Shown here: in pieces, positions 32,779 through 59,439 of the stretch
Layout of the letters: the number at the start of each line of letters is the position of its first letter
Position numbering within the stretch: the first letter of the stretch is position 1
Virus record (IMG/VR): IMGVR_UViG_3300048836_000452
Direction: 5' to 3' (one strand)
DNA length: 64,000 bases
Source: an uncultured virus (IMG/VR IMGVR_UViG_3300048836_000452)
Taxonomy: Duplodnaviria > Heunggongvirae > Uroviricota > Caudoviricetes
Notes under the pieces: generated by a model
Databases searched by the model: none
Seen by the model: the letters and a program-made list of their open reading frames with translations, nothing else
What the model was told of the DNA's origin: nothing
Position numbers and translations under genes: made by a program

Positions 32779-32780
32779 CG

Positions 32781-33791: not shown

Positions 33792-33840
33792 GTGCTCTCC
33801 TCTCTTGCGCTTGGGGTTACTCCCAACGGGGACCCCGCGC

Positions 33841-34175: not shown

Positions 34176-34226
34176 TATGGGGACCCCGCGAAAAGAACCG
34201 CCCCCCGAAGGGGGCGGGGGTCTTGG

Positions 34227-35132: not shown

Positions 35133-35185
35133 TTAATTTTTCCTTTCATGTCAAGGGGTTATTCCTATGGGAACCCCGTGACGCG

Positions 35186-35359
35186 AAAAAAAGTCTTTCA
35201 CTCCCTAGCGATAGGTCGTGTCGTCCTTTTAGAACCTCTGTCGAATTCCGCATGTGCTCGCGTGGTCTCAAGCGCCGGGTCAGGGCGCGATCTTCACGGA
35301 TCGTATGTGGCGGTGCCCTCGCCTTATGACAGGGGCATATCCGGTTTACGGTTCTTTCC
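35186..35359 (-). ncRNA. Candidate structured ncRNA (~170 nt)
   Basis: From promoter 35363 to T tract at ~35186; AGAACC/GGTTCT closing stem, internal hairpins. Confidence 0.45.
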
Positions 35360-35387
35360 TATGGGGACCCCGTGAAATTGAAGGGGC

Positions 35388-35538
35388 AAAAAAACGATGC
35401 CTTGCGGCATGTTCCTGGCCTAGATCCTGTTTCAGTCTGTCTCCAGGTGAACCTGGTCGGACCTATATCAGACCCGCCCTCCTTGCAGAGGGCTACCAAG
35501 CGATGTCTTGCGACATGCCGGGCGAGGCCGTGTATTCC
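35388..35538 (-). ncRNA. Candidate multibranch ncRNA (~150 nt)
   Basis: From promoter 35542; GGCCT/AGGCC closing stem enclosing four hairpins (two GCAA loops), then GCAA terminator hairpin + T7 tract. Confidence 0.55.
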
Positions 35539-35768
35539 TATGGGGACCCCGTGACTTCCTCCGGCAGGCCAGCACTGGCCCCGGCCATGTCGGTGATCCA
35601 TTCAGCCACCCAGCCCTCCGCCAGCTGCATCTGCTCATAGACGAGGAGCGTCAGGATGTATTTCTCCTGGAACGGGGTCAGCCCAAGACCAGGCAGGGCG
35701 TCAGCCGTTGCCTGGATGGCAGCCTCAAGTGCGGGGATCAGCTCCTCGCCGGCTGTCACCTCAGTCAA
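35538..35768 (-). CDS. Hypothetical protein
   Basis: 76-aa ORF ending in promoter 35542. Confidence 0.45.
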   Translation of the reverse strand: MTEVTAGEELIPALEAAIQATADALPGLGLTPFQEKYILTLLVYEQMQLAEGWVAEWITDMAGASAGLPEEVTGSP

Positions 35769-36252
35769 GGTGAAGCCTCCTCTGGCTTAGCAGGTCCTTC
35801 CTCACCCGCACGGCAGCGCAGAAATGCACGCGCTTCTTCAGGTGAACGCGATTGTTCGTTGTGACCTTCACGCGCCACGTAAACCCCTGAGCGTAGCGAT
35901 GATCGGGGATCGGCCAGATGTGATACCCCGGCATGTTTTGCTTGTTCTCGGCATTTGTTGCCTCTCTCAGGTTGGCCCATCGGTTGTTGGACTTGTCCCT
36001 GTCCTCGTGGTCGAGAAGGTGAGGCCAGCGCCCCTCCATCAGTGCGAAGGCAAGGCGATGCGCTTTGACGCGGAGCGTCCGGGTCAAGGCAACGACCACA
36101 TATCCCTTCCTGGACAGCGCGGTGCAGGGACCGCGTGGCCCTGTGATGACGCCAGTTTCAGGATCGTAGCTGAACCGCGCCCGCAGCCAGTCGATCGGTG
36201 GCAGCTCGTGCTTGCGTAATTCGGCGCGAAATGGTTCGGTCGGGATGTTCAT
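35761..36252 (-). CDS. HNH homing endonuclease
   Basis: YDPETG...AHRLAF...LDHEDRDKSNNRWANLREAT. Confidence 0.85.
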   Translation of the reverse strand: MNIPTEPFRAELRKHELPPIDWLRARFSYDPETGVITGPRGPCTALSRKGYVVVALTRTLRVKAHRLAFALMEGRWPHLLDHEDRDKSNNRWANLREATNAENKQNMPGYHIWPIPDHRYAQGFTWRVKVTTNNRVHLKKRVHFCAAVRVRKDLLSQRRLHLD

Positions 36253-36346
36253 CAGCGGCTCTCCAGGGCTGCTTGTGAAAAGTGTCACCGGGCGCTGTTC
36301 CATCAGCCCCGGTGACGCGCAGGCTAGCAGCCGCTTTCCCTGACAG

Positions 36347-36520
36347 TCAATCCAAATGCAGTTGATCCGGATCCCAAGGGCGCCCGTTCCAGGCGTCGTC
36401 GCTGGGCTGCATGCGCGAGCCGTCTGCGGCCATCCCCAGGCTCTCCATGAACTGGTCCTCCTCGTCAGGAAGATCGACGGTGTCTTCCTCTATCTCACTC
36501 TCGTCAGGCTTCGGTGCCAT
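36347..36520 (-). CDS. Small acidic protein
   Basis: 57 aa (below track cutoff) MAPKPDESEIEEDTVDLPDEEDQ...; AAGGAG RBS. Confidence 0.55.
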   Translation of the reverse strand: MAPKPDESEIEEDTVDLPDEEDQFMESLGMAADGSRMQPSDDAWNGRPWDPDQLHLD

Positions 36521-36692
36521 GGTTCTCTCCTTGTCAATATTAAGGGCAGACCCCCTCGACAGGCAGACCCGGCTGACGCATAGTGCCCTTGCGCCCTGTC
36601 GAGGGGGCGCAAGGGTAGATTACCAACCAGAGGGGTTTCCATGCAAGGACCAGCCAGTCCCTTGACCAATATGCTGTGGGAGGCATCAGGTC

Positions 36693-37229
36693 ATGCCTCA
36701 CTATAGAGTGGCGACACAAGTCGCGCAACGCCGTAATTGCAAGGTTGACAAGCCGAAGCGCCCGATCCGTATTGAGGGCGACATCGCTTTCATCCCCCTG
36801 ACCAAAGGGCATGAGGCCATCATCGACGCTGCAGATGTGCCGCTGGTGGAGGGGCGAAGATGGTCAATGTCTGGCCCGGGCTATGCTCAGTGGAAGGGCG
36901 GCGTTTATCTGCATCGGATGATCCTTGGCCTTGAAGCCGGAGACGGTCGGTTTGCGGACCACATCAATGGCAACAAGCTGGACTGCCGAAGGGCAAACCT
37001 CAGGGCCGCCACAATGGCGCAAAACGTCCAGAACCGGCCGGCCCGCAGCGATAATTCTTCCGGCATCAAGGGGGTTTCCTTTGATCGCAGCAGGGGGCTG
37101 TGGACGGCGGAGGTGAAGAGCGGCCGGGTGCGGATCAGGTGCGGACGCTTCGCAAGCAAAGAGGCGGCAGCAGATGCCGTCAGGGCCGCTCGCGAGGTCC
37201 TGCATGGGGAGTTCTGCAACCATGGCTGA
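36693..37229 (+). CDS. HNH-AP2 homing endonuclease
   Basis: YLHRMIL...ADHINGNKLDCRRANLR; NSSGIKGVSF...W.AEV AP2 domain. Confidence 0.85.
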   Translation: MPHYRVATQVAQRRNCKVDKPKRPIRIEGDIAFIPLTKGHEAIIDAADVPLVEGRRWSMSGPGYAQWKGGVYLHRMILGLEAGDGRFADHINGNKLDCRRANLRAATMAQNVQNRPARSDNSSGIKGVSFDRSRGLWTAEVKSGRVRIRCGRFASKEAAADAVRAAREVLHGEFCNHG

Positions 37230-38124
37230 GGACATCCTCACAGCCGCCCTCCGCCTTGCTGGCGATGGTGTGGCCATCTTCCCGGTCGCAGGCAAGGTGC
37301 CGGTCTGGGAAAAGGGCAAGAGCCCCACTGGCAGAGACGGCTTGCATGCAGCCACCACCGATGAGGAGGAGGTGGTGGCCCTCTTTTCCCACCCCCGCGT
37401 CACTGGCGTCGGCATGCCCACCGGAAAGATCAATCAGGTCACAGTGGTGGATGTCGATTGCGGGAGGGGTAAACCGCACCGGGATGCTGCAATGGCGTGG
37501 CTGGATGACAACCGCAAGAACTTGCTGGCCTCAACCGTATCCCGAACGCAGAGTGGCGGCTTGCATTTCCTGTGCCGCTACCGAGAGGACATCAAGTCAT
37601 CAGCCAATGTCTGGGCGATGGGTGTCGATTGCCGGAACAACGGGGGGTATATCCTTATCCCTCCGTCGCCCGGATACAGGTTTGAAAGGCTCATCGAGAA
37701 GGAGGATTGGGGGCTGCCCCCAGAACCCCCCGCAGCGCGGCTCCGCCGCGCCATCGTGGACCTCAAGGACGGCAAGTGCCCCACCGAGATCATGGCCATG
37801 CGCGACCTCATCGAGCAGGGCGTCACCTGGCACGATCCGGTCCGCGACATCATCGCCCACCTCGTAGGGTCGGGATGGTCGGATGCGGAAATCCTGCGCT
37901 TCACCTTCCAGTGGACATGGGCCGGGCACCAGCCAGCCGAAACCTTCGAGCAGCTTTGCGTCATGATCAACGGCGCGCGGGACAAGTGGACCCGCAAGGA
38001 TGATCCCACCACCACAGAAGAGGCCAAGCTCTGGAAGCTGGCCGACACATGGAACCGGTCGGCGCCAGACACGCGCAAGACCTTCTTCGACATGATCCGG
38101 GAAAGCGAGGAACAGAATGACTGA
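37222..38124 (+). CDS. Bifunctional DNA primase/polymerase (prim-pol)
   Basis: AIFPV..KVP, ATTD, GMPTG, VVDVD, RTQSGGLHF, GVDCRNNGGYILIPPS. Confidence 0.85.
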   Translation: MAEDILTAALRLAGDGVAIFPVAGKVPVWEKGKSPTGRDGLHAATTDEEEVVALFSHPRVTGVGMPTGKINQVTVVDVDCGRGKPHRDAAMAWLDDNRKNLLASTVSRTQSGGLHFLCRYREDIKSSANVWAMGVDCRNNGGYILIPPSPGYRFERLIEKEDWGLPPEPPAARLRRAIVDLKDGKCPTEIMAMRDLIEQGVTWHDPVRDIIAHLVGSGWSDAEILRFTFQWTWAGHQPAETFEQLCVMINGARDKWTRKDDPTTTEEAKLWKLADTWNRSAPDTRKTFFDMIRESEEQND

Positions 38125-39664
38125 CGAACGGGGGCCGCGGCGACCGACAATCCTGCCGATGAGTGATCCGAACGTGGCCGAAGCGGCAGAGCGCGCCGCC
38201 GTCGAACCCTTGCAGACCCGCGTCGGCCGCCATTGGGCACAGGAGAATGCCGATGCCTTCTGCTACGATCACGAAGGCGAACGCTGGATGCGGTGGGATG
38301 GGTCGAGGTGGGAGGATGAACGGACCGGGGCCGCGCTCGACAGCATGGTCAATTTCGTCGAAGCCCTTCGGGTAAGAGATCCCCGCGGCTACAAGGGCGC
38401 CGCCAACCTCAGTTTCATCAAGTCCGCACTCTCGATCGCCGCCGCCTCCCGCCTCATGGCCCGCAAGACAGACGATTTCGATGCCGACCCGTTCCTCCTC
38501 GGTGTGCCAGGCGGACAGGTGAACCTGCTCACAGGTGAGATCGAGGACCCGCGCCAGACGTCCATGATCTCCAAACAGGTCATCGTCCGCCCCGAGAAGG
38601 GCGAATGTCCAAAGTGGATCGCCTTCCTCAGGCAGGCCCACGAAGGGCAGGAAGAGGTGGTCGACTGGCTGCAAAAGTTCTGCGCCGAAATCCTCCTGGG
38701 CAAACAGACCGATCACCACTTCGCGTTCTTCTACGGCGACGGTGGCAACGGCAAGTCGCAATTCCTCGAGACCATTCGCGAGCTGATGGGGGACTATGCC
38801 GAAGAGGCGCAGGAAGGCACGTTTACCCGCCCTGAAAAGGGAGGATACCACGGCCACACCCACGTCCTCGCCCGCCTGCGTGGCAAGCGCCTGGTCACCG
38901 TCTCGGAGCCGGGCGTGGGCGATGTCTGGGATCTGGGTCGCATCAAGGCATGGGCCGGCGGAAATATCATCAGCGCCAACCGCATGCGGCAGGAGAGCGT
39001 TCCCTTCAAGCCCGTGGGCATGCTGGTCTGCACCGCCAACCACCAGTTGAAGGTCGAGAGCGTCGATAACGCCGTCGCCCGCCGCCTCAAGTATCTGGTC
39101 TGGCCGCACAAGTTTCACGGCGATGGCTACGAGCACCTGACCGTGACAGACCTCGGAGCGAAGATCATGGCTGAGGAAGGGCCGCAAATCCTCTGGTGGA
39201 TGATCCAGGGCGTGCCGCGCCTTCTTGAGGAAGGGCTGGGGGCCGCTGACGTGATGAAGGTGGCAGGCAAGGCCTATCTGCGCGAGCAGGACACCATGCA
39301 GCGGTTCATCGACGAAACCTTCGTGGCCGATGAGCAGGTGCAGCCAGGCGTCAACCTGCGTGATGCGGTCACGATCTACAACGAATGGGCGCGGATCAAC
39401 GAAGCCCCGGCCCTCAAGCGTATCGGAGAACTCCTCACGAAGAAGGGCCTCACCATCTCGAAGACCAACACCGAGCGGTTCGTCCGCAAGCAGTCCCTCT
39501 CCGCAGAAGGCATGACCCTCATGTCGAACGCCCTCATGGCGCGGATCAGGGCCAAGGAACTGACGAAAGCCGAAGCCGCGCGATGGTCGCCCACCCTGTC
39601 AGAATGGAAGCTCGCCGGCGAAGATGGGGCTTACCTCGATGATCTGCTTGGGGTTGAAAAATGA
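38117..39664 (+). CDS. P4-family primase-associated D5-like SF3 helicase
   Basis: WMRWDGSRW D5-N motif; YGDGGNGKS Walker A; LARLRGKRLVTVSE; CTANH. Confidence 0.9.
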   Translation: MTDERGPRRPTILPMSDPNVAEAAERAAVEPLQTRVGRHWAQENADAFCYDHEGERWMRWDGSRWEDERTGAALDSMVNFVEALRVRDPRGYKGAANLSFIKSALSIAAASRLMARKTDDFDADPFLLGVPGGQVNLLTGEIEDPRQTSMISKQVIVRPEKGECPKWIAFLRQAHEGQEEVVDWLQKFCAEILLGKQTDHHFAFFYGDGGNGKSQFLETIRELMGDYAEEAQEGTFTRPEKGGYHGHTHVLARLRGKRLVTVSEPGVGDVWDLGRIKAWAGGNIISANRMRQESVPFKPVGMLVCTANHQLKVESVDNAVARRLKYLVWPHKFHGDGYEHLTVTDLGAKIMAEEGPQILWWMIQGVPRLLEEGLGAADVMKVAGKAYLREQDTMQRFIDETFVADEQVQPGVNLRDAVTIYNEWARINEAPALKRIGELLTKKGLTISKTNTERFVRKQSLSAEGMTLMSNALMARIRAKELTKAEAARWSPTLSEWKLAGEDGAYLDDLLGVEK

Positions 39665-39712
39665 GGGTTGGAGTGACGATATTACAACCGGCGGTAGCCC
39701 TAAGGTTTAAGT

Positions 39713-39807
39713 GAGTGCCGTTAAAACGGCCCTCCCCCCTTTTCACGCACATACGCGTACGCGCGCATATGCGGAGAACGTAGGCAAGTGCCGTTTTAAC
39801 GGCACCC
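39713..39807. repeat. 95-bp origin-like element, copy B
   Basis: GAGTGCCGTTAAAACGGC ... CGCACATACGCGTACGCGCGCATATGCG ... GTGCCGTTTTAACGGCAC, directly after the helicase stop. Confidence 0.75.
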
Positions 39808-39902
39808 ATATAAAAGCACTCAACCATAGAGAAATGGCCGCAACCTTAAGTTGACCGCGAAAAAAGGAGCGCCCGCGTGATGCGGACGCTGCCATTCTGC
39901 GG

Positions 39903-40091
39903 TCACTTGGCTTTCAAGCGACGGAACTGTCTGTTGGACAGGCGCGACACGCGGCGCTTTCCGACCTCGTTCCCGCCTGCGAAGGCGGCGATGGTCATGA
40001 GCACGGCGATGCCGAGCGCGATCCAGGTCAGGTTGGCTCCGACGAAGGTCGTCAGGTCACTGAGCAGGGTGGCGTTAAGCGTGGGTTCCAT
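39903..40091 (-). CDS. Small membrane protein
   Basis: GAGGAG RBS after promoter 40133; one TM. Confidence 0.6.
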   Translation of the reverse strand: MEPTLNATLLSDLTTFVGANLTWIALGIAVLMTIAAFAGGNEVGKRRVSRLSNRQFRRLKAK

Positions 40092-40126
40092 GTGGAACGC
40101 TCCTCTTGTGTCAGAAGCGGATTGCT

Positions 40127-40263
40127 TCCTATGGGGACCCCGTAACCTGTTGATAAAAGCTAATGATTGGTAAAACTATATTGCGCCGCAGCGCGGCGGA
40201 GCCGCGCCAGCCTGAGTAGCTTGCGTGATTAGTGTAAACTGACGTGGCGGGGTCCCCACAGGA
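40127..40263. promoter_or_regulatory. Back-to-back pair of phage-RNAP-type promoters
   Basis: Leftward core at 40133-40141 (N3=ATA); rightward core GGGGTCCCC at 40249-40257 followed by ACAGGA. Confidence 0.8.
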
Positions 40264-40285
40264 AACATCAACCAGGAGACCAACC

Positions 40286-48133: not shown

Positions 48134-51100
48134 ATGGCTTCGGTGAACGAAAAGATTGACCAGTTCCTTGACTGGGCGCTGAAGGAAAAGGGCGCTGTCG
48201 ACATCGAGCCTCCCCTCGACGGCGACGTAATTCCGTTTGTTTCCCGGCGGGCATCCATGTCGCCTGAGGAGCTTCGTGACCTGAATGACAAGAGGGTCAT
48301 GGACCGTCTCTTCGAGAACTTCCAGAAGCTGAACGCTGCGGCTCCCGTCATGGACCCTGGGCCGCGTGTCGAAGCCCCGTCGGATGCTGGACTTGGTGAC
48401 GCGCAGGTCAATGCTCCGGATGCACCTACCCGTGCGCCAGGCCCGCCTCTGGCGCGGCCATCTGGTGGTGCTGGGCTCAACGAAGGCCCGCTGCCTTATA
48501 CCGGCGGGCCGGTCAACCTGCGTGAGGGGCCGGTTAACTCCAACATGTGGCGTGAGGGCTATCGGGCCAGAGATATTCTTCTTCCCCCGCTGACGATCAA
48601 TCGTGCCTTCAGGAACGCCACTGGCGCTCCCTTGCGCGAGGAATTCTCGAACTTGGGCCGCTTCGCCTACTACACGGGTTGGGCAGGGCACCCTCGCTAT
48701 GAGATGGCGGTCCGTGGCAAGAAGCTGCTCGATGATGCGATCGCGGCGCAGGAGGACCAGGGCCTCATCACTAACCGGATCAACAAGGAGTTCGAGCCAA
48801 AGCTGAAGGAGGCGCGCAAGGCCCTGGCTGACGCCTCCAAGGGGAGGAGCCAGTCACAAATCACGACGGCCACCAACAACCTGAATGCGCTTCTCGCGCA
48901 GAAGGATGACGCCATTGCGGCGGTGACGGCCAATGACCCGGATGCGCTCCGTGCGGAGATCGACAAGCAGATCGGGGCTGATTGGACCAAGACCAAGAAC
49001 AAGATCAAGAAGGGGGCCAAGCTCGGCGCTGCTGGCTTGGCCGCCGTCGGTGGAACGGTAGCCACGACTTTGGCCGCCAAGGCGATCATGGATGCCAATG
49101 CTGGCGGTGAAGACGGGGACTTGGTTGTCAGGTTCGCCCGGGGTCAGCCTATGACCGATGACGAGATTGCCGAAGTCGAGGACATGTTCCCGCCTGAGGA
49201 ATTCGAGGCCCTGCAGATTACCCGGAACAAGGGGTTGGGCATTGATTACCCGCAGGCCAAGGAGCCGCTGTTCTTTCAGGGCGGCGCAGGCATGACGGAC
49301 GGTGGTGGCTCACCCGCCACTCCTGCAGCCTCGCCGGTCTCTACGGTCGAGGACTGGAACGACATCACCCAGAGATATGTCAGTGGTGGTGATCTTACGC
49401 CCGAGGAAGTGGCGGCGATGCAGCAGTTCCTGTCGCCTGAGACCATGGCCGAACTGGATGGATACAGGGCCGCCGTTCAGCCAGCGCCCGCATCATCTCC
49501 GGGGCCAAGTGCTCCCTCGTATAAGCGACCTGAGGTTGTCGAGCCTGAGGCGACGATGACGGCTGAGGAAGTTCTGGCCCTGATGGAGACAGACCCGGCC
49601 GCAGCGGCCGCCTATGTTCAGGAAAACCAGAACCAGCGCGACCTGGACGCGATCCGCAATTATGTCGATGCCGGCATCCAGAACTTTGCTGGGGCGCTCG
49701 ACCTTCCGGAGAGCATCCAGGGCGGCCTTCGTAATGCTGCAGAGGGTGCTCGCACCGGTCAGGTGGGGGACGTTGTTCCTGACAATGTGGTTACGGACGT
49801 GTGGGATGGATATTCTGACCTTTGGTCCGAGTATGTGATGAACCCCTATGAGAGTTGGAAGCGCGGCGGCGATCCGAATGACCCGTCCTTCTTGCGGCGG
49901 CCTGCGGCCGCTGCGGCCAAGGCGCTGCTTCCGGAAGATGCTTACCGCGCCTACGAGGATTACGGGATCGGTGAGTTCCTCGACCCGATGAACTACGCTG
50001 ACATGATCCTCGGCACCAAGTCCGACGAGCTTGGTCAGGGGGTTTACAACCTGGCTCGCGAGGGCCTGACTGCGATGGAGGCAGAAGGCACGACACCCGA
50101 GAGCTTTGTCGAGCCTTATCGCAAGATCCTTGGTGACCTTGGTGGTCAACCGCTGGGCTACCCGGGGGAGCAAGGGTCTGTCTTCGAGCCAGGCCCTCTC
50201 CCGGCATTCGGCGGTGCCCGGCCTGAACTTGCCCCTGGCGGCATGCCTCCGGCTCCCGCACTTCCCCCTGATGCACTATCCGGCTTTGTCCGCCCGGAGC
50301 TCACCGCGGCTGGCATGCCTGCTGCTGCTGCTGGTCCTGCGCCGATCGTGGAGCCTCAAGCCCCAGGCATGCCGATGGGGCCGGACGCAGAGCCGCAACC
50401 TCCGTCTGGTGGTGGCATCAGTGGGTTCTTCGGTGATCTGTTTGGTTCTGGCGACGACCAGCAAGCCAAGGACGAGAGCATTGACGGCATCATCGACGGG
50501 GCTGAGGTTCTAAACCCAAGGGGACAGATTGATGCGTCTCCGCGCCCCCTCCCCCGTCCGGCCGGGCTGAATGAGGACGTGGCTCCGGCTATCGACGTGA
50601 CCGTTCCAACTGTCAGTGCGCCGGCTGTGGCGACACCCACAACTCCCGCCGGTCGTCCTGCCCCGGGGGCAGTGGGGGACCTCAACACTTCGCGTGAGCG
50701 CGGGGTGGCCGGGCTGGCTGAAGATGCGGAGGCGGCTGAGGAGGAGTTGAACTGGATCAACCGCATGATGCGGGACAAGCTCGGTCTGACTGACGCCTCT
50801 GAGCGCGCCAAGGCGGCTGAGGCGCTGGTTTCTTTTGGATCGACCGTCCTGGCCTCAAAGGGCGACACTTGGCAGTCGATTGGGGAGGGTCTTCAGGCTG
50901 GCCTAGGGAGCGTTCTCGCTGCGAACGACGAGGAAGCTGCTTCTATCGCGGCCCAGCAGGAGGCTATGGAGGAGGACGCTCGTTGGCGGGCGGATTACGC
51001 CCTCAGGGAATTGAACGCTCGCCGTGGCGGAGGGGCTGCGGGTGGTATGCCAGCAGACGTCCAGAAACTCGAATACCTCACTGGCATCTTCTACGAGCAG

Positions 51101-51196
51101 CTGATGGCCTCCGGGGGGATGACTGCTGAGCAGGCTGCGGTTGAGGCGCAGAGGATGGCGACTGACAGGATCTTCGAGGCGGAGGCCGCATACTGA
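48134..51196 (+). CDS. Large internal virion (ejection) protein
   Basis: 1020 aa, low-complexity/acidic, in ejection-gene position. Confidence 0.65.
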   Translation: MASVNEKIDQFLDWALKEKGAVDIEPPLDGDVIPFVSRRASMSPEELRDLNDKRVMDRLFENFQKLNAAAPVMDPGPRVEAPSDAGLGDAQVNAPDAPTRAPGPPLARPSGGAGLNEGPLPYTGGPVNLREGPVNSNMWREGYRARDILLPPLTINRAFRNATGAPLREEFSNLGRFAYYTGWAGHPRYEMAVRGKKLLDDAIAAQEDQGLITNRINKEFEPKLKEARKALADASKGRSQSQITTATNNLNALLAQKDDAIAAVTANDPDALRAEIDKQIGADWTKTKNKIKKGAKLGAAGLAAVGGTVATTLAAKAIMDANAGGEDGDLVVRFARGQPMTDDEIAEVEDMFPPEEFEALQITRNKGLGIDYPQAKEPLFFQGGAGMTDGGGSPATPAASPVSTVEDWNDITQRYVSGGDLTPEEVAAMQQFLSPETMAELDGYRAAVQPAPASSPGPSAPSYKRPEVVEPEATMTAEEVLALMETDPAAAAAYVQENQNQRDLDAIRNYVDAGIQNFAGALDLPESIQGGLRNAAEGARTGQVGDVVPDNVVTDVWDGYSDLWSEYVMNPYESWKRGGDPNDPSFLRRPAAAAAKALLPEDAYRAYEDYGIGEFLDPMNYADMILGTKSDELGQGVYNLAREGLTAMEAEGTTPESFVEPYRKILGDLGGQPLGYPGEQGSVFEPGPLPAFGGARPELAPGGMPPAPALPPDALSGFVRPELTAAGMPAAAAGPAPIVEPQAPGMPMGPDAEPQPPSGGGISGFFGDLFGSGDDQQAKDESIDGIIDGAEVLNPRGQIDASPRPLPRPAGLNEDVAPAIDVTVPTVSAPAVATPTTPAGRPAPGAVGDLNTSRERGVAGLAEDAEAAEEELNWINRMMRDKLGLTDASERAKAAEALVSFGSTVLASKGDTWQSIGEGLQAGLGSVLAANDEEAASIAAQQEAMEEDARWRADYALRELNARRGGGAAGGMPADVQKLEYLTGIFYEQLMASGGMTAEQAAVEAQRMATDRIFEAEAAY

Positions 51197-54100
51197 TGGA
51201 CCAGGCAGGTCTGGGATACCCGGCTGCGCCGGCAGGTGTCGGGCTCAATGAGGCTCCTGCGGTCACGATGGGTGATCGCAACCGAGCTTTTGTCGAGAAC
51301 CGCAAGATGGGCATGTCTGTGGTGGATGCGGCTCGCGCTGCAGGCATGGCCGTCGCCCCTCCCCCTCCCCCGGTCGCGGCTTCGCCTGCGCCCGTCGACG
51401 ACCCCTCGATGCTGGACCTTGTTCCGGGGGCTATTCGCAGCACGGCAGCAAACACCCTCAAGGGTCTGGCGGAGATCGGCACCCGCCTGACGGGTGATGA
51501 CGAGATTGCCGATCAGGGTGCGGAATGGGCGGAGGCCATCGGTCCGACGGAGAGCCAGATCGCACTGTCCAACGAGATGCGCGAGGATCGTCAGGCGACT
51601 TATGAGGAAGACCAGAACGGCGTGAAGCGCCTTGCTGGTGATGTCGGCCAGGCACTTACCGAAAGCGCGCCTCAACTCGGCCTTTCCATCGGCTCAGGTC
51701 TTGCGGCAAGGCAGGGGTATCGAACTTCGATCAAGGCAATCTCCAAGCTCCTTCCTGGACGTCTGGGGAGGGTGGCTGAGGCCGTCTCCGAAAGCGCCTT
51801 CGGCAAGAACGCGTTTACCACGGCCGGCGCGGCCGCCCCGAACCTCGCGCTATCCTATGAGGACGGGATCCAGAAGGCGCTTGATCAGGGCCTTGATCCG
51901 TCCGACCCGGAGGTGCGGGACCGCATTGACCAGTCCTCTGTCGCGCGCACCGTGTTCGAGACATTTACCCCGTTTGCCATTCTCAGGAAGATTGGCACGC
52001 AGGCCCATGTTGCCCGCACTGTGAAGGGTGCCTTGGCGCGTGAGGTGCCGAAGACCGGCCTCATCGAGGGGTCGAGTGAAGTGGTCGATATGGCTATCCA
52101 GGAGGTCATGCTTGACGAGGAGTTGCGCTCAAAGCTGAGCGATGAGGACAAGACGGCGCTGCTGCCCTATGCCGCCGATCGCTACGGATATGATGCTGCC
52201 GTTGCCGCCCTGTCGGGCGCTGCTGCCGGTGGCGCGTTTGACGCGCCAGGTGTCAGCATGCAGCAGAGCCTGACCAACCGGCGCTTGGCTGAAGACGCTC
52301 GCAAGGCGGCGACCGTGCTTGAGCCGATGGGCATGAGCGCCGCTGATCTTGAGGATCTGACGAAGACCCCCGAAGGGACAAAGAAGCTTCGTGAGGCTGT
52401 TGAGCAGCTGGGGTCTGTCGAGGCTGCGCGCGCCCGCCACTTCCGCAAGATTGACGAGATGGGGGCTGAGGAAGATACCGTCGCAGAGCTGAAGGCGCAG
52501 GTGAACCGGCAGCTCGATGAGCGTGTCGACAAGATTGCCAAGGCGGTCGGCGCACCGAAGTCACTCGAGGATGTGCGCCGTGAGCGCACCTCGTGGGAGA
52601 AGGAGCGCCAGCGCACCGCGGCGGACCGGCTGGTCCGGCGAGGGCTGAAGCCGAAGAAGGACTTGCCCCCTGAAGTCGGTGAGGAGGTCGCCAACGCCCT
52701 TGACCAAGCCGAGGGGGAGGTCGACCGGTTGCAGACCCGGCTGGATGCGACAGCTAACGCTGAACGCCGGGCCGGCACCCAGGCCGAGCTGGACGCGGCG
52801 CTATCTACGCGGCGGCAGGCTCGGATTGACGCTCGCATGAAGGTCGAGGGGCTGACCAGCGCCCAGGCTGTCAGGGCTGTGGAGCAGGAAGGCAAGCAGA
52901 CCGAGGCGGAGAGACGCCTTGAGGCGCAGCGCGGAGCGCGGGAGCGCGCCATTGAGCGTCAGACCGAGATTGAGTTCCCGGAGACCATGGCGCCCGCGCT
53001 GCGCGCGCAGCGCGCACAGGAGGTTATCGCTGAGGCCGAGGCTGATGTTCGCCCCGACGCCGGTCTCGACGGGAAGATCAAGCGCCTCGAGCGCCAGAGA
53101 CGGGCCGCGACATCTCCTGAGGATGTTGATAGGCTCACAGACGAGATCGCCGATCTTGAGGCGCGGCGCGGTCTGCCCACACCTGCGGTGGAAGCAGCGC
53201 GTCGCGTTCTGCAGGCTCAGGGTGTAGCGGTCCCGCAGAGGGGTGAGGCGTCAGGGCCCACCGCTCAACCCGCTGAAGCTGAGGGTTTGCAGCCTGAGGC
53301 GGAGGCATCAGGGCCGGTGGGCGCGGCAGCGCCTGCCGGTCCGCGCAATACCGAGGTCGATGGAGACCTGGTTACCAACCTCAAGCGGGGTGGTGATAAC
53401 GCGCCCCCACTGTCGGACACGACCCGCCCGGCTCGGGCCCGGCGTCTCTACAAGCGCCTGGTTGATCGCGGCGTGCCGGCAGATGATGCGGCCAAGCAGG
53501 CGGCGGAGCTGACTGCACCCGTGCCGGAGCCGTCGCCACAGCCGGACGGGAAGGGCTTCCTTGGTCGCTTGCTGTCGCCGCTCCCCACCCCCGCGCAGCA
53601 GGGCATCGTCCTCGATGCCCTTGAGCGGGCACGAAGCTATGTCCGCCCCAATGGAACCCTCTTCGAGGCTTATGCCTACGAGGATCTGGCTGGGCGCTTC
53701 CGCGCAGCCAGGACGGTCGATGAAGTCTACGACATGATGGGCGACATCTCGGACGCCAGGTATGCCGAGGTGTCGGTGGTCATGACCCCCGATGGCCAGA
53801 TCGTGACGGCAGGGACGAACAACAACCCGAACTCTGTCATTGTCATGGTGCCGAATGACGCCTTCGAGCGGGGGCTGATCGACATTCACACCCACCCTGT
53901 CCCGTCTGCCTTCTCGATGCAGGACCTCTACTCGACCATGGGGAGCGGCCTGACCTCGCGGCTCGTTCTGACGGATGGTCAGGTTCTCGAAATTCGCCCT
54001 TTGGTCGCTGACGGTGAGCATCTGAACGAGGCCAAGGAAATGCTTCGCGAGGTCTCTCGCGCCATCATCGACGCAAGCCCGTCGCGTGGACCGACGGGTT

Positions 54101-57100
54101 ACTACAACGTCCAGACCCGGGCTGAGGCCATCACGCAGGCCGCCGAGATGATGGGCATGATCGACTACGTCCGCCCGTTCCGGGGCCTGGACCAGCAGCA
54201 GAAGGACATCGTTGATGCAACCCTTGACACCTTCAGGCCAAGGCTCGAACGGATTAAGGCAGGTCTTGCGAGTGGACCACGACCGGATGGAGGAGCAGGA
54301 GCTTCGCAAGCTGGCCGGGAGCGGCGATCCCCTAGCCTCCGAAGAGCTGTCGATGCGGAAGAGGGAGCGAGCGAAACGGATGACATCGAGCAAGACGAAC
54401 TCTCCGATCTCCTCGACGATCCCTACGACGTCCGCCACTCCGCCCGAACAGACCGTAGACCTTCCGTCAGTCCCGAGCGACTGAGGGATCTGGCCACCTC
54501 GGTTCACGCCGAGCTTCTGCGCGACGCCAATGCCAGCAGGCACCGGAAATCGCCGCTTGTCGCGGCGGTCCGGGACGGCAAGGTGACTGTCGATCAGATC
54601 GAAGCAGGCATCAAGGCGTGGGTAGAGAACGACGGCTACAAGCGGATGCATGCCCTCGGCGATGTCGTCCGCAGGATGTTCCCCGACCATGTCATCGGTC
54701 CTGATGACTTCGTCGTGGACAAGCGGAACAAGGTCGGCCAGGCGCGTTACGGCACGAAATACAATCGGCTTCTCGACAATGCCATCGAGCCTCACAAGAT
54801 AGCGCTCGAGCTGGCCGAGAAGGTTTACGTTGGCAAGGCTGGCTACATCGACAGCCGGATGATCTGGGTCCGGAACAAGTCAGGCCTGAGGTTCAAGAGC
54901 GGCCTCGTCGTCGTCAGTGACCGGTTGAAGAACAGCCTCGAATTCACCAGCCCGCCGCACACCCGGTTCGATCCACCCTGGCCGGCTGACAACGTGTCGA
55001 AGATCAAGCGCGATGTGCGCGGAAACGCCTTCACCGACGACGCTCTTGAGCCAGCGCGCCGCACGGCGCGCTATCTGCAGGGCAACCGGTACACGCTCGA
55101 TGCGGACCGTATCGCCAAACTGACCTCTGACGACATGATCTCGAAGAAGGGTCTTGCGGCCGATGGCCTCAAGAAGTCCGACATCGAGCTGTATCGCAAG
55201 CTTACCCGCACGCCGCGGGCTCAGTGGACCGACGTCGAGGCGAAGTTCATGGCCCGGCAGGGAGACAGCATCGGCGAGAAGATCGTCATCGCCGAGAACA
55301 AGCTCAAGCAGCTGCGCCGTGCCTATGAGACCTTCAAGGAGCAGCACGGGCCCGACGCGGAGACCGGCTTCCTCTACCAGGTGGACAATCGCGGTCGCAT
55401 CTATGCGGATGGCCAGTTCAACCCGCAGGGTGGCTCTGCGATCAAGGCAATCTTCAAGCATAAGGGTGTATCCCTGGCCGACATGACCGAGGTCGATGCT
55501 TCGGCTTCGGGCTGGCAGATCAACGCGCTGATGGCCCGTGACCACATTGCGGCGCCCGAGATCAACCTGGGCCGTGGCCAGGCAAGCGTGCCGGACGGGG
55601 TGAAGTCTGACCTCTACACCAACACGATCGCCAAGGTGGTGGAGCAGATCAGAGCTGACGCCGCGGTGGACGTGAAGTCTCTCCCGATCAGCCAGAGGTC
55701 TGATGCCCTGCGCCGCCAGCGCCTCGCCAAGGCCTTTATCAAGGCCGGCCTTGGTCCAGATGGGAAGCTGAACCGGGACGCCATCAAGGCTTCGGTGATT
55801 GCCGTAAACTACGGCGGGACGCGGGCGAATTTCTCCAAGAACCTTCGCAAGGTGTTTGACGCCGACATGGATGCCTTCCGGGATGTTCAGGGCGACCAGC
55901 CTTGGTCCTACATCGGCAATCTGGCGTTCGAGAGCCTGAGAGCGACGGCCCCGCATTCGCTGGCCTTGCAGGAGTGGACGACCTCTTCGATCTCCAAGCT
56001 GGCCGAGGCTGTCGAGAAGAAGTATCCGCCCGGCGAGATGCCACCGCTGGTGTTCTCCGTGGGCCTCGAGGGCAAGGTCAAGGTCAAGAAGAAGAAGACC
56101 AAGGAGGCCGAAGCTGCCATTCGTGGTCGCACGGCGACGACTTTTGCCCGGGATGCAAACGGAGCTTACGTCCTTGACGAGGCTGGTGAGCGGGTTGTCG
56201 TGAACAACACGCGCGAGGACGTGGTCAATTACAAGCAGCGCATCGACATCCTTGAGGTGGATGCCGACAAGATCGGCCGGGCGGTATGGGCGAACATCGT
56301 GCAGGGCTTTGATGCCTCTGTCCTGCACCGGGCGGTCGAGCGGTACAAGCAGATGACCGATGGCGCTTATATCACCACGAACCACGACAGCTTTACCGTT
56401 CCTCCGGAGCATGAAGGCGCGATTGCGGCTTCGGTCCGCGAGAGCATGAGGGCGATCATGGAGCAGGTAGATGCGCCGGCGCGCATCTACCAAGAGATCA
56501 TGGACCAGGCCGCAGAGCATGGGGTCGAGATCGACGTTCAGCCCTTCAGCAACATGGGCCAGTACAACATGGACGACCTAATGACCTCGACGCCGGTTTT
56601 CGGCGAAGGGGCCAAGGGCAAGGACTACATTCCCGACTACGCCGAGATCCCGGAAGATGCTCCGACCTTGCGCCGCGCAGTCGATCCAGAGGTTCCGGCG
56701 GGCGGTGGGGGTGCCACCACCGTCGGATCGCCCCCTGCCCGCGTCCCGGTTCGCGAGCAGGGGGCCTCGGATATTTCCGATCTGTCGCCAAGTCTGCGGC
56801 GGGCTGTCGATGTCGCTGATTATATGGCTTCGCTTCCTGAAACCTCATCCGTTCTGGCCAAGGTGCAGGCGGCTGCGGCTTCGCCGCAGGTAGCCAATCG
56901 CAACCTGATGCAGATCCTCGAAGATACGGTCTTCAACTCGTTCGCTCCGATCCGGCGCCTCGAGATCGGCCTCAAGGGCAAGCTGCCCGACGGGGCTGAA
57001 AGCGCGTTCAAGGCCGCCGAGATGGCCGTCAACGACAGCGGGCGGCAGGAGGCGCTGCTCTACTATGGCGCGGCCAAGTTCGGTCAGCATGGCGAATATG

Positions 57101-59439
57101 CTGTTGCCCCCGGGACGATGGGTCTGAAGGACATCTTCAAGCTTGCCGGCGGTGACGGTGCTGACCGTGGGCAGCGCCTGCAGGACTGGATGCAGTGGAT
57201 GGTCGCGCGCAGGGCGCAGGATCTGGCGGCGCGCGGGATCAAGACGCCGCTCACACCGCAAGACATTCAGACCGCGCTAGCCAAGGGGGCGAATATCCCT
57301 GAGTTCCAGCAGGCGGCGGATGCCTGGAAGAAGTTCAACGACGCCAACCTCGACTTCCTCGAGCAGTCTGGCCGCATCAACGCAGCGCAGAAGGCTGCGA
57401 TGCAGGCCGATGACTTCTATGTCCCCTTCTACCGGTCGGACGAGCGTGTTGACGGCACCTCGCCCGAGCTGGTCCTGCCTGGCTACAGGCCCGGCACGAT
57501 CCAGGCGGGCATCCTGAGCCGCAATCCCGGGATCAAGGCGATCAAGGGCGGGGACAAGCTCCGCATCGACAACTTGATGCAGAACATGATCCGCAACAGC
57601 CAGGCCATGGTGGGCGCGGCTATGCGGAACAAGGCGGCCAACCAGACCTTCGACCTGATGACGCAGGCCGGCATGGCGAGGGTCGAGCCGATCAGCGCTT
57701 CCAAGCCCGATCCGAATGCGGTTCGGATATGGAAAAACGGGGTTGAGAGCTGGATCATCCCCGAAGGGCGCGAGGCTTACCCCCTGATGACAGCGCTGGC
57801 TGGCATGCAGCCCGTTCAGATGAACGCAGCTATTCAGCTGATGGCTGATATTGCCAGCATCTTCCGGCAGGGCATCACGCTCACGCCACCGTTCATGATC
57901 CGCAACGCCATTCGTGGCGCGGTGTCGTCGGGCATCATGACGACCGGCGCGAACCTGACCCTGACCAACAACACGATCACCGGCTTCCGGGAGGCTTACA
58001 ACAACGGGCAGGCGGCGCAGGCGTTCAAGGCGCAAGCGGGGATGGGGGACTACCGGTTCGGCAACACGGATGCCGGCTTCGGGAAGGACGACATCCTGAT
58101 CGAGTTCGGCCTTCTGCCAAAGACGATGGGGTCTCGTTTCCGCAAGTTCATGGAGAAGATGGAGCACGTCGGTTCCGCGACGGAACTCGCTGACCGCATC
58201 GCGGCCCGCGAGACCATGATCGCCAATGGCATGCGGCCAGATGAGGCGTCCTATCAGGCCCTCACGATCATGAACTACAGCCGGAAGGGCAACAGCCAGG
58301 CGCTGCGCGCCTGGCTGCCGCTGGTCCCGTTCTTCAACGCCCGCTTGCAGGGCTTCTCCCGCATGGCGGAGGGGGCTGTGGGCAAGCGCGGGATGGCGGG
58401 TCGCAAGCAGGCTCTGATGCAGATGGCCTTGAACGGCTTGGTCCTCTCGATCATCTCGGGGGCGATCTGGGCCTGGAATTCCGACGACGAGGAGCGCAGG
58501 GAGAAGTACAAGGACGAGCCGCTCTACCGGCGCCTGAACTATCACATCGTGTACTTTGGCGACACCGCGCTCTACATCCCAAAGGCATTCGAGCTTGGCC
58601 ACGTCTTCTCCTCGATCCCCGAGTTGTTCGCGGATGCCTTCATCAAGGGAGACATGAACGAGATCGGCGCTGGCCTGCGAAAGATCGCAACCGACACGGT
58701 GACGATGAACATGATCCCAGCGGCAGCCCTGCCCATCATCGAGGGGCTGACCAACTACAGCTTCTTCCGTCAGGCTGAGCTTGAAGGGATGCGGGAAAGC
58801 GCCATGAGGCCATCCGACAGGACGTCAGGGGCATCAGCCCTGACACGCCTGGTCGGGCGCGACATGGGGATCAGCGATCTGACGGGCATCTCGCCCACCA
58901 TGATCGAGCACTGGGCCTCCAGCTACGGCGGGATCTACTACGTCATGCTGTCTACGGCGATCGACAGCGTAGCGTCGGACCTTGGCCTCATGCCGGTCCG
59001 CCCCGGCGGGGCTTTTGGTGACACTCCGGTCCTGTCGCCGGTCCTTAACCGAGCCTTCGGCTCCTTCCTTAGGGACAGTTCGACCACCACCACGAAGTGG
59101 GTCGAGGAGTTCTACCGGACCAAGGACTGGATTACCCAGATCCACAGGTCTGCTACCGCCGCCGAAGGTGCGGGGGACATCGAGTATTCCAACAGGCTCT
59201 TGGCTGCCGCTCCCGGGCGACCAGCGGCGTACAAGCTTGTCAACAAAGCGGGGACGGACCTGAGCGAGATCAACGCTGAGCTGCGGAAGATCAGGGATGA
59301 CCGGTCGATGAGCCGTGAAGAGAAGCGCAGGCGCGAGACTGAATTGATCCAGAGGCGGAATGCGATCACAAAGAACGTCATGCGGACGATCCGGGACATT
59401 GAGGATAGGCAGGGGGCAACCTTCAGGTCGGTTCAGTGA
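51196..59439 (+). CDS. 2747-aa virion polyvalent protein: N-terminal ejection region, JAB-like domain, T7-like RNA polymerase, LPD38-like C-terminus
   Basis: DNRGRIY..FNPQG (aa ~1397), DASASGWQ (D1434), R1527-x3-K-x7-YG, NIVQGFDAS, HDSF (D1731); HTHP..FS..D; C-terminal PFFNARLQG / YIPKAFELG. Confidence 0.85.
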   Translation: MDQAGLGYPAAPAGVGLNEAPAVTMGDRNRAFVENRKMGMSVVDAARAAGMAVAPPPPPVAASPAPVDDPSMLDLVPGAIRSTAANTLKGLAEIGTRLTGDDEIADQGAEWAEAIGPTESQIALSNEMREDRQATYEEDQNGVKRLAGDVGQALTESAPQLGLSIGSGLAARQGYRTSIKAISKLLPGRLGRVAEAVSESAFGKNAFTTAGAAAPNLALSYEDGIQKALDQGLDPSDPEVRDRIDQSSVARTVFETFTPFAILRKIGTQAHVARTVKGALAREVPKTGLIEGSSEVVDMAIQEVMLDEELRSKLSDEDKTALLPYAADRYGYDAAVAALSGAAAGGAFDAPGVSMQQSLTNRRLAEDARKAATVLEPMGMSAADLEDLTKTPEGTKKLREAVEQLGSVEAARARHFRKIDEMGAEEDTVAELKAQVNRQLDERVDKIAKAVGAPKSLEDVRRERTSWEKERQRTAADRLVRRGLKPKKDLPPEVGEEVANALDQAEGEVDRLQTRLDATANAERRAGTQAELDAALSTRRQARIDARMKVEGLTSAQAVRAVEQEGKQTEAERRLEAQRGARERAIERQTEIEFPETMAPALRAQRAQEVIAEAEADVRPDAGLDGKIKRLERQRRAATSPEDVDRLTDEIADLEARRGLPTPAVEAARRVLQAQGVAVPQRGEASGPTAQPAEAEGLQPEAEASGPVGAAAPAGPRNTEVDGDLVTNLKRGGDNAPPLSDTTRPARARRLYKRLVDRGVPADDAAKQAAELTAPVPEPSPQPDGKGFLGRLLSPLPTPAQQGIVLDALERARSYVRPNGTLFEAYAYEDLAGRFRAARTVDEVYDMMGDISDARYAEVSVVMTPDGQIVTAGTNNNPNSVIVMVPNDAFERGLIDIHTHPVPSAFSMQDLYSTMGSGLTSRLVLTDGQVLEIRPLVADGEHLNEAKEMLREVSRAIIDASPSRGPTGYYNVQTRAEAITQAAEMMGMIDYVRPFRGLDQQQKDIVDATLDTFRPRLERIKAGLASGPRPDGGAGASQAGRERRSPSLRRAVDAEEGASETDDIEQDELSDLLDDPYDVRHSARTDRRPSVSPERLRDLATSVHAELLRDANASRHRKSPLVAAVRDGKVTVDQIEAGIKAWVENDGYKRMHALGDVVRRMFPDHVIGPDDFVVDKRNKVGQARYGTKYNRLLDNAIEPHKIALELAEKVYVGKAGYIDSRMIWVRNKSGLRFKSGLVVVSDRLKNSLEFTSPPHTRFDPPWPADNVSKIKRDVRGNAFTDDALEPARRTARYLQGNRYTLDADRIAKLTSDDMISKKGLAADGLKKSDIELYRKLTRTPRAQWTDVEAKFMARQGDSIGEKIVIAENKLKQLRRAYETFKEQHGPDAETGFLYQVDNRGRIYADGQFNPQGGSAIKAIFKHKGVSLADMTEVDASASGWQINALMARDHIAAPEINLGRGQASVPDGVKSDLYTNTIAKVVEQIRADAAVDVKSLPISQRSDALRRQRLAKAFIKAGLGPDGKLNRDAIKASVIAVNYGGTRANFSKNLRKVFDADMDAFRDVQGDQPWSYIGNLAFESLRATAPHSLALQEWTTSSISKLAEAVEKKYPPGEMPPLVFSVGLEGKVKVKKKKTKEAEAAIRGRTATTFARDANGAYVLDEAGERVVVNNTREDVVNYKQRIDILEVDADKIGRAVWANIVQGFDASVLHRAVERYKQMTDGAYITTNHDSFTVPPEHEGAIAASVRESMRAIMEQVDAPARIYQEIMDQAAEHGVEIDVQPFSNMGQYNMDDLMTSTPVFGEGAKGKDYIPDYAEIPEDAPTLRRAVDPEVPAGGGGATTVGSPPARVPVREQGASDISDLSPSLRRAVDVADYMASLPETSSVLAKVQAAAASPQVANRNLMQILEDTVFNSFAPIRRLEIGLKGKLPDGAESAFKAAEMAVNDSGRQEALLYYGAAKFGQHGEYAVAPGTMGLKDIFKLAGGDGADRGQRLQDWMQWMVARRAQDLAARGIKTPLTPQDIQTALAKGANIPEFQQAADAWKKFNDANLDFLEQSGRINAAQKAAMQADDFYVPFYRSDERVDGTSPELVLPGYRPGTIQAGILSRNPGIKAIKGGDKLRIDNLMQNMIRNSQAMVGAAMRNKAANQTFDLMTQAGMARVEPISASKPDPNAVRIWKNGVESWIIPEGREAYPLMTALAGMQPVQMNAAIQLMADIASIFRQGITLTPPFMIRNAIRGAVSSGIMTTGANLTLTNNTITGFREAYNNGQAAQAFKAQAGMGDYRFGNTDAGFGKDDILIEFGLLPKTMGSRFRKFMEKMEHVGSATELADRIAARETMIANGMRPDEASYQALTIMNYSRKGNSQALRAWLPLVPFFNARLQGFSRMAEGAVGKRGMAGRKQALMQMALNGLVLSIISGAIWAWNSDDEERREKYKDEPLYRRLNYHIVYFGDTALYIPKAFELGHVFSSIPELFADAFIKGDMNEIGAGLRKIATDTVTMNMIPAAALPIIEGLTNYSFFRQAELEGMRESAMRPSDRTSGASALTRLVGRDMGISDLTGISPTMIEHWASSYGGIYYVMLSTAIDSVASDLGLMPVRPGGAFGDTPVLSPVLNRAFGSFLRDSSTTTTKWVEEFYRTKDWITQIHRSATAAEGAGDIEYSNRLLAAAPGRPAAYKLVNKAGTDLSEINAELRKIRDDRSMSREEKRRRETELIQRRNAITKNVMRTIRDIEDRQGATFRSVQ

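Follow-up and report, generated by a model that had tools for sequence, protein, structure and literature searches.

The stretch of DNA analysed here (the window) comprises 64,000 nucleotides of the IMG/VR record IMGVR_UViG_3300048836_000452 and holds most of the genome of an uncultured phage of ~68 kb, at a G+C content of 62-68%. The gene in question is a giant open reading frame (ORF), free of cysteine codons, in the middle of which lies a module resembling the single-subunit RNA polymerase (RNAP) of phage T7 (Table 1). A first reading of the letters alone (the sequence-only reading) had described an RNAP embedded in a protein of 2747 residues, and both the ORF and the position of the module, residues ~1085-1803, agree with that description. 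The window is collinear with a relative, G001 (an IMG/VR record of 69,145 bp, CheckV 100% complete), whose giant protein is ~53-57% identical. Rightward genes run from ~40.3 kb to the end of the window, continue through a piece that lies outside it, and resume at base 1 to ~9.3 kb; the leftward genes occupy the span between ~40.1 and 9.5 kb. The giant gene lies 11 kb inside the rightward structural operon, 3' of tail-fibre and M15 peptidase genes and 5' of the terminase and portal genes. Its start codon (ATG) overlaps the stop codon of an upstream 1020-residue ORF and its own stop codon overlaps the start of the terminase ORF; by these overlaps in the sequence it is translationally coupled to both neighbours. 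In the + strand gene run around it, which includes the tail-fibre, terminase and portal genes, starts and stops likewise overlap where checked.

Table 1. Features of the giant gene, of its neighbours and of the promoter-like sites (positions in the window; aa, amino acid residues)
Feature	Position	Strand	Remark
Promoter-like sites before leftward genes, 27 (core GGGGTCCCCNNNGGRA, extended consensus CGCGGGGTCCCCATAGGRA)	22319..40141	-	
Sole + strand promoter-like site, diverging from the site at 40126-40141 (-)	40249..40264	+	
Upstream protein, 1020 aa, 0 cysteines; candidate co-ejected protein	48134..51196	+	
Giant ORF, 2747 aa, 0 cysteines; polyvalent protein with RNAP	51196..59439	+	Open for 2747 codons
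N-terminal region, aa 1-700: Gly/Ala-rich conserved part, then helical block aa ~578-673 with many invariant columns	51196..53295	+	
JAB/MPN+ (JAMM) metalloprotease-like domain, aa ~838-994; E858, H898, H900, S907, D910	53707..54177	+	
Joint 1, LRRAVD aa 1048-1053, then variable acidic linker, before the RNAP module	54337..54354	+	
Single-subunit T7-type RNAP module, aa ~1085-1803: N-terminal domain, thumb, palm, fingers, long beta-hairpin aa 1633-1688	54448..56604	+	
Codon of D1434, motif A aspartate (T7 D537)	55495..55497	+	Invariant, 17/17
Codon of D1731, motif C aspartate (T7 D812)	56386..56388	+	Invariant, 17/17
Joint 2, LRRAVD aa 1825-1830, 22 residues past the end of RNAP homology	56668..56685	+	
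Joint 3, LRRAVD aa 1867-1872, start of the C-terminal module	56794..56811	+	
C-terminal carrier module, aa ~1912-2733 (~820 aa), common to phage large polyvalent proteins	56929..59394	+	
LPD38 (PF18857), aa 2436-2592	58501-58971	+	E 1.9e-20
Terminase large subunit, two ORFs	59436-60386 and 60334-61098	+	
Portal, 806 aa	61165-63585	+	

What identifies the module as a T7-type polymerase? The catalytic landmarks of T7 RNAP occur in order and at the residues claimed in the sequence-only reading: YQVDNRGR starts at residue 1394, DASASGWQ at 1434, RDAIKAS at 1527, NYGG at 1538, NIVQGFDAS at 1700, NHDSF at 1729 and TPVFG at 1799. HMMER aligns them with the T7 residues named there, pairing D1434 with D537, R1527, K1531 and Y1539 with R627, K631 and Y639, G1540 with G640, and H1730 and D1731 with H811 and D812; D1397 and R1401 align with the T7 DWRGR (DxxGR) motif and the C-terminal stretch with T7 868-882. 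The Pfam family PF00940 matches residues 1433-1782 with 55.8 bits against a cut-off of 22 (E 4.7e-15), phrog_414 'RNA polymerase' matches with E 1.4e-32, and T7 RNAP chains in the PDB with E 3.6e-11 to 7e-11 (24% identity over 408 residues). Searched against PDB sequences, a profile of the family (17 relatives) retrieves T7 RNAP (6e-14), N4 RNAPII (0.035) and otherwise chance rows; neither a JAB chain nor the mini-virion RNAP (mini-vRNAP) of N4 was found in this search. The assignment to a T7-like and not an N4-like enzyme, made in the sequence-only reading, is in keeping with the PF00940 match, with T7 RNAP at E ~4e-11 and with the absence of significant similarity to N4 gp50. Among the 17 relatives, which are otherwise 31-97% identical, D1434, K1531, Y1539, H1730, D1731, D1397 and R1401 are invariant (17/17), and R1527 and G1540 are kept in at least 90%.

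An AlphaFold2 model of residues 1080-1810, built with 28 sequences, has a predicted local distance difference test score (pLDDT) of 90.1 and a predicted template modelling score (pTM) of 0.89. In the comparison of folds with Foldseek, which had been suggested as a check, and with VIA, T7 and mitochondrial RNAPs lead. The top Foldseek match of the model is T7 RNAP (3e2e, E 1.8e-19), with mitochondrial RNAPs next; VIA-align gives Z 23.4 both for T7 RNAP (1h38; root-mean-square deviation (rmsd) 4.4 over 444 residues, 23% identity) and for the yeast mitochondrial enzyme (Rpo41), followed by N4 RNAPII at Z 19.4 and DNA polymerase I chains at Z <=17, in alignments that cover model residues 7-723. 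The N4 mini-vRNAP is absent among the 50 entries listed by Foldseek or VIA, a gap in a list that does not prove the folds to differ. The model has, between motifs B and C, a long beta-hairpin (residues 1633-1650 and 1668-1688) where T7 714-767 are unaligned; the hairpin is a candidate counterpart of the T7 specificity loop (739-770), which reads a duplex promoter. The RNAP homology ends at F1802/G1803, equivalent to T7 F882/A883, and 944 residues follow. Judged by alignment and model together, the module is a complete single-subunit T7-type enzyme with a right-hand fold and intact catalytic residues, and it looks active. No second RNAP was found among the 54 window ORFs scanned with PHROGs or the 68 scanned with Pfam, and a six-frame PF00940 search of the complete G001 gave one match, inside its 2765-residue frame; the module is the sole RNAP found by these scans.

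Is the fusion peculiar to this phage? A search of 1.84 billion representative proteins yielded 26 matches to the RNAP module at E <=0.001. Fused giant or truncated proteins of 1269-3859 residues account for 22 of them, including every strong one (E <=4e-48), and of the remaining four, two are short fragments and two are RNAPs that stand alone (E 1.8e-5 and 2.4e-4). By the evidence of these sequences the module is always fused among its recognisable relatives and never free among close ones, and the fusion is kept in proteins down to ~30% identity. The RNAP region has no tblastn match at E <=1e-5 in 50,697 deposited phage genomes, and therefore no cultured relative with the module. When the single protein was used to look for loci, viral contigs gave one near-identical fragment and genome contigs nothing; with the family alignment, 9 loci came up in all. 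A distant relative, 30% identical over the RNAP part, is encoded at 6985-12606 of L006, a 14,333-bp contig of a metagenome-assembled genome; that contig was assigned to the bin of an uncultured Chromatiaceae genome, the only pointer to a host and one that the binning may have produced in error. Part of the early region is contained in DNA runs of freshwater, sediment, wastewater and animal-gut samples, which as to habitat is a lead only. No run recorded as RNA contains the stretch, and two runs guessed to be RNA contain a tenth of its words.

The RNAP shares its polypeptide with several unrelated domains. Behind it, residues 1994-2728 align with the C-terminus of a 'large polyvalent protein' (2772 residues) of Planktothrix phage Pag-Yong1 (E 5e-47), and the C-terminal module as a whole matches phrog_18222 and phrog_9854 and has one hydrophobic segment (residues 2406-2424). 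The module occurs in 41 deposited phage records, 28 of which cover at least 80% of the query, and the annotated genes in those 41 are DNA methylase, DarB-like, RelA/SpoT or 'virion structural protein'. Since it is fused to differing enzymes across these records, it is a common carrier with swappable cargo. Swaps are also seen among relatives of the giant protein: according to precomputed Pfam, 6 of 19 relatives have an Acb1 domain, directed against the cyclic-oligonucleotide-based antiphage signalling system (CBASS), in the linker that separates joint 2 from joint 3 (confirmed in P0004), and the more distant relatives P0020 and P0026 have a Zeta-type kinase before the RNAP. For the N-terminal 700 residues the ESM Atlas gives viral clusters as neighbours, some with LPD22 (12% of members) or LPD14 (66%), which is a lead only.

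Ahead of the RNAP lies a region, residues ~838-994, that we assign with moderate confidence, from its motif and its modelled fold, to the JAB-type metalloproteases. The motif was found in 19 of 20 proteins, and its five residues are invariant in an alignment of 25 sequences (25/25). Its spacing is HxH-x6-S-x2-D; the canonical JAMM spacing is x7, one residue longer than in the giant protein. Foldseek with the model of the region (pLDDT 83.9) places JAMM chains (PfJAMM1, AMSH, Sst2) at ranks 1-15, and most lower rows are JAMM, MPN or RadC; the best match, PfJAMM1, has E 1.8e-3 and prob 1.0, and VIA gives a modest Z of 7.6 (rmsd 3.5 over 107 of 129 residues). A Pfam scan of the giant protein names no JAB family, and the ESM Atlas returns unnamed clusters only for the region. 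The zincin signature HExxH is absent from the giant protein and from all 30 family proteins, and the giant protein has a JAB/MPN+-like domain in place of the zincin known from N4-like virion RNAPs (vRNAPs). The modules are separated by joints that repeat the motif LRRAVD. At joint 2 the form LRR[AS][VIL][DE] is present in 8 of 20 proteins and looser forms occur in others; such forms (xRRAxD, LRxGxD, xRRA-VDVA) mark the corresponding joints of relatives. As read from the sequence, the RRAVD joints are candidate cleavage sites.

The amino acid composition bears on where such a protein might act. Cysteine is missing from all 2747 residues of the giant protein and from 29 of the 30 family proteins, the exception being P0015 with two. 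The vRNAP of N4 has none in 3500 residues, as compared with 12 in the 883 of T7 RNAP; the stand-alone RNAPs P0033 and P0034, both weak matches, have 8 and 4. Within the window, the 1020-residue protein and the portal (806 residues) have no cysteine, a 968-residue tail protein has one and the cytoplasmic helicase has 4 in 516. A cysteine-free composition is as expected for proteins that leave the cytoplasm with the virion, and on sequence the lack of cysteine is common to the giant protein and to the one right-hand RNAP known to be injected, the N4 vRNAP.

Which genes could the polymerase serve? A repeat search of the window uncovered a repeat family of 17-plus copies, and the pattern GGGGTCCCCNNNGGRA, with at most one mismatch, has 28 matches against 0.63 expected and a maximum of 3 in 100 shuffles. 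The aligned sites read CGC-GGGGTCCCC-ATA-GGRA, a promoter-like motif of 19 nucleotides (nt) that can also be written GGGGTCCCCATAGGRA and, in duplex-template form, CGCGGGGTCCCCATAGGGA. Real T7 promoters have ...cactata/GG at their annotated start, and the final seven positions of the motif are accordingly similar to that region. Within 64 nt, 24 of the 28 sites are followed by a Shine-Dalgarno-like site with a start codon, as against 21% of 2000 random positions, and at these 24 the start codon is 15-53 nt from GGRA. The sites that lack them, at 31733, 34172, 35356 and 35535 (- strand), may head longer leaders or non-coding RNAs. Most sites come directly after a G+C-rich hairpin with a T-run; terminator-like hairpins number 38 in the promoter-site region against 15.8 expected, and elsewhere 6 and 13 against 9.8 each. 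The + strand site heads the rightward operon, in which small ORFs come first and then the structural genes, including the giant gene. In G001 the pattern has 26 matches, with the same divergent pair. Near-identical hairpins, GCCGCCCC-TTCG-GGGGCGGC with a T-run, recur after many early genes (21800-34220, - strand), and a promoter-gene-terminator unit recurs roughly every 300-1200 nt. Sigma-70-like sites, scanned with an E. coli-type consensus that may not be the host's, are not enriched in any region (3, 1 and 0 against 3.4, 2.4 and 2.1 expected).

From these observations we think it likely that the product of the giant gene is a polyvalent protein delivered by the virion, with a catalytically intact T7-type RNAP as the cargo that drives the early genes. 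Packaging into the virion and injection are themselves quite likely, and the phage probably carries its own transcription enzyme as N4 does, with a different enzyme and a different carrier. We propose that the giant protein would be made late, packed in the capsid by way of its C-terminal carrier module, and ejected with the DNA, a passage that its lack of cysteine would suit. The RNAP module would recognise double-stranded CGCGGGGTCCCCATA/GGRA and start at GGRA, as T7 RNAP does at TATA/GG, and would transcribe the 27 short leftward promoter-gene-terminator units, so that early expression could proceed without host RNA polymerase. Transcription of the late operon, with the giant gene in it, would be driven from 40249, the one copy that points rightward. 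Lastly, the upstream JAB/MPN+ domain, or a head protease, may cut the RRAVD-type joints and thereby free the RNAP (and Acb1 in relatives), although cleavage is the weakest step of the proposed mechanism. It is possible, but we regard it as doubtful, that the whole transcription programme is free of host polymerase from the outset: the RNAP would pass through the tail within the ejectosome and, anchored at the membrane via LPD38, would make the early mRNAs and reel the genome in from the 27 co-oriented promoters, and after JAB had cut the RRAVD joints the freed RNAP, with a T7-like C-terminus (and Acb1 in relatives), would read the late operon from its single rightward promoter.

Several points weigh against virion delivery of an early polymerase. 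Packaging and injection are predicted from the genes, and ~4.4 kb of the G001 layout, just after the portal gene, fall outside the window and were judged through G001 alone. For T7 and mitochondrial RNAPs of solved structure, the fold alignment reaches the final residue listed for the chain (883, 1351 and 1230), whereas in the giant protein another 944 come after it; the module must therefore be cut out or be as tolerant of them as the N4 vRNAP. Extensions at the C-terminus are poorly tolerated by T7 RNAP. The RRAVD joints are only loosely conserved, and the JAB assignment is made from a motif and a modest Z of 7.6 and is undetected by Pfam. The motif could be bound by another factor instead, and it is absent from the leftward genes at 9.5-22 kb and from the rightward primase-helicase genes at 37.2-39.7 kb. 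Promoters of the host could also escape a scan for an E. coli-type consensus.

Some of these points would fit an alternative that we nevertheless consider unlikely, in which the giant protein is not packaged at all. It would be a late or middle polyprotein made from a host promoter, its RNAP, free or cleaved, would read the motif-bearing genes much as T7 RNAP reads class II and III genes, and the 'early-looking' genes would not be those first expressed. T7-type RNAPs are normally free cytoplasmic enzymes (T7 gene 1), the host may have promoters that we would not recognise, and the motif-free genes at 9.5-22 kb and 37.2-39.7 kb imply that something else, or read-through, transcribes part of the genome. 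Yet a polyprotein of this kind would hardly be expected 11 kb into a structural operon with translational coupling on both sides, joined to a carrier module that elsewhere belongs to virion or polyvalent proteins, and cysteine-free like the N4 vRNAP and unlike T7 RNAP. The lack of any excess of sigma-70-like sites and the retention of the RNAP-carrier fusion down to ~30% identity also speak for delivery in the virion.

Less probable still is a protein that is injected but whose RNAP serves chiefly as a DNA-entry motor, tethered to the ejectosome by the C-terminal module, or as a maker of replication primers. Genome entry is driven by transcription in T7 and N4, and T7-type and mitochondrial RNAPs can prime replication. 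All 27 leftward sites are co-oriented, as a pulling motor needs, the C-terminal module has its hydrophobic segment, and polyvalent proteins of conjugative elements are described as delivering primases (PMC5512222). Against this, the arrangement of 24 of the 28 sites 15-53 nt before a ribosome site and start codon, most of them after a terminator-like hairpin, is the layout of expression units and not of one entry track or origin, and the phage has its own primase-polymerase and D5-type helicase; an entry or primer role and early transcription are in any case not mutually exclusive. Finally, although activity is predicted from sequence and model and the core GGGGTCCCC is partly self-complementary, it is very improbable that the module is an exapted, inactive structural domain and the motif a regulator site or RNA-level element serving another factor, as the catalytic and nucleoside triphosphate-binding residues are all invariant in relatives of only 31-56% overall identity, the fold is modelled confidently across the whole module, and the motif resembles the start region of real T7 promoters.

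The giant gene lies in the structural operon, although the description of its neighbours as 'ejection-protein genes' in the sequence-only reading was not borne out by homology: the 1020-residue upstream protein, which we retain as a candidate for co-ejection, has no Pfam or PHROG match. The portal has relatives in Pelagibacter phage HTVC023P, Roseobacter phages CRP-901 and CRP-902, Planktothrix phage Pag-Yong1 and Caulobacter phage RW. The large terminase is split between different frames into an ATPase part of 316 residues and a second part of 254 residues, with an overlap of 53 nt. G001 has the same split (316 and 239 residues; L014 4521-5471 and 5464-6183), which rules out an error of sequencing; possible explanations are a genuine two-gene terminase and programmed frameshifting. 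Beyond the portal, the stretch of G001 that corresponds to the piece outside the window has five ORFs of 186-302 residues, and a head-tail adaptor of SU10 type (PF24175, E 9.6e-11) is encoded at 13-618 (+). A 42-bp terminal repeat of G001 was considered as marking the true genome ends, and so which end enters first, and was rejected as probably an assembly overlap.

Two peptidoglycan peptidases of the M15 family are encoded at 47059-47610 and 8538-9326 (+; VanY-like, E 2.2e-12, and Peptidase_M15_3, E 5e-23), one of them just ahead of the genes considered for ejection. The head of the rightward operon has three tandem small Lys-rich ORFs of 71, 42 and 81 residues (40931-41513, +), each ending ...K-x-K/G-G-K and sharing a repeated 29-nt junction (repeat family D12, 4 copies); they may encode small basic internal or DNA-binding proteins. 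Two HNH endonuclease genes, at 35761-36303 (-) and 36693-37229 (+), the second with an AP2 domain, flank the switch from leftward early genes to the rightward primase-polymerase and D5-helicase genes, and no DNA polymerase gene was recognised in the window. Among the leftward genes are two for anti-defence proteins, an Acb2/Tad1 hairpin-domain protein at 14523-14822 (-) (PF24729, E 1.6e-18) and a Tad2-like protein at 15347-15682 (-) (PF11195, E 1.7e-26); with the Acb1 domain that relatives have beside the RNAP, this lineage seems to devote much to countering defences based on cyclic nucleotides.

What would virion delivery of this enzyme mean? Right-hand RNAPs delivered by virions have hitherto been those of N4-like phages only, to which virion RNAP modules are confined according to a survey of polyvalent proteins (Iyer et al. 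2017, PMC5512222). In the present lineage, which is unrelated to N4, the cargo is a canonical T7-type enzyme, taken up by another, widespread delivery frame (LPD38) that comes with another, putative protease, and at least 22 distinct representatives exist in public genome and metagenome data. This suggests that the strategy of 'bring your own polymerase' evolved more than once, by domain shuffling; if the doubtful reading of a wholly host-independent programme is true, right-hand polymerases would have arrived at the virion-RNAP strategy a second time, independently. The function of a T7-type enzyme without a free C-terminus, its need for excision and transcription-driven genome entry are now testable. 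In addition, the cysteine-free RNAP module of ~720 residues and the 19-nt motif form a predicted enzyme-promoter pair for in vitro use, which would, if that same reading is true, be a ready-made new orthogonal RNAP and promoter.

Among known systems, N4 gp50 is the closest in organisation. In both proteins a single-subunit RNAP domain lies in the middle of a giant polypeptide (3500 residues in N4, 2747 here) that has no cysteine and is encoded beside virion genes. However, the two show no significant sequence similarity: the best BLASTP E value is 0.2, and hhalign of the family profile gives a probability of 0.25, at DxxGR only. In Pfam gp50 matches PF21894, PF21769, PF21867 and PF21624 and neither PF00940 nor LPD38; the giant protein matches PF00940 and LPD38 and, at E <=1, none of those four families. 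The N4 vRNAP promoter is of the hairpin type, whereas the promoter-like motif described here looks like a T7-style duplex. None of 31 window proteins matches the right 40 kb of N4 (tblastn, E <=0.01), and no RNAPII genes were found. The N4 enzyme is packed and injected and transcribes the early genes (PMC5512222, PMC4496689). N4-like vRNAPs are described as almost always fused to a zincin (HExxH) metalloprotease (Iyer et al. 2017, PMC5512222), in contrast to the giant protein, which has no HExxH.

T7 RNAP is the nearest solved relative by sequence and, jointly with mitochondrial RNAP, by fold. The catalytic residues are the same, and the motif ends in ...ATA/GGRA where T7 has ...TATA/GG. The T7 enzyme, however, is a free early protein of 883 residues with 12 cysteines and a free C-terminus, whereas the module is internal and cysteine-free, ~110 residues shorter before DxxGR, and longer in the hairpin between motifs B and C (77 residues versus 54).

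A third likeness is to the LPD38 polyvalent proteins, such as those of Pag-Yong1 and phi24B (gp47), which share with the giant protein the C-terminal carrier of ~800 residues, the size, the late-gene context, the swappable cargo and the anti-defence domains. Their known cargoes are methylases, DarB-like helicases, RelA/SpoT, kinases and peptidases, whereas a T7-type RNAP is carried here, and processing is likely to fall to a JAB-like enzyme and not to a zincin. The gp47 giant of the E. coli phage phi24B is present in virions by proteomics and has been proposed to be an ejection protein (bioRxiv 10.64898/2026.04.10.717836). Both the virion RNAP and LPD38 are listed among phage-only domains (Iyer et al. 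2017, PMC5512222).

Likewise, the virion RNAPs of crAss-like phages (for example, phi14:2 gp66) and other two-barrel virion RNAPs are hidden in a giant and probably injected protein, but their fold is unrelated, two-barrel as opposed to the right-hand, Pol I-like fold of the module. We take phi14:2 gp66 to be such a two-barrel RNAP. In the literature covered, passages of PMC5512222, PMC10654107 and PMC10386132 included, no PF00940-type RNAP fused to LPD38 is described; the N4-like screen in PMC10654107 deliberately removed T7-like RNAPs and proteins below 2500 residues. In this phage a strategy, an enzyme family and a carrier that are each known are newly combined, alongside a new putative protease and a set of predicted promoters.

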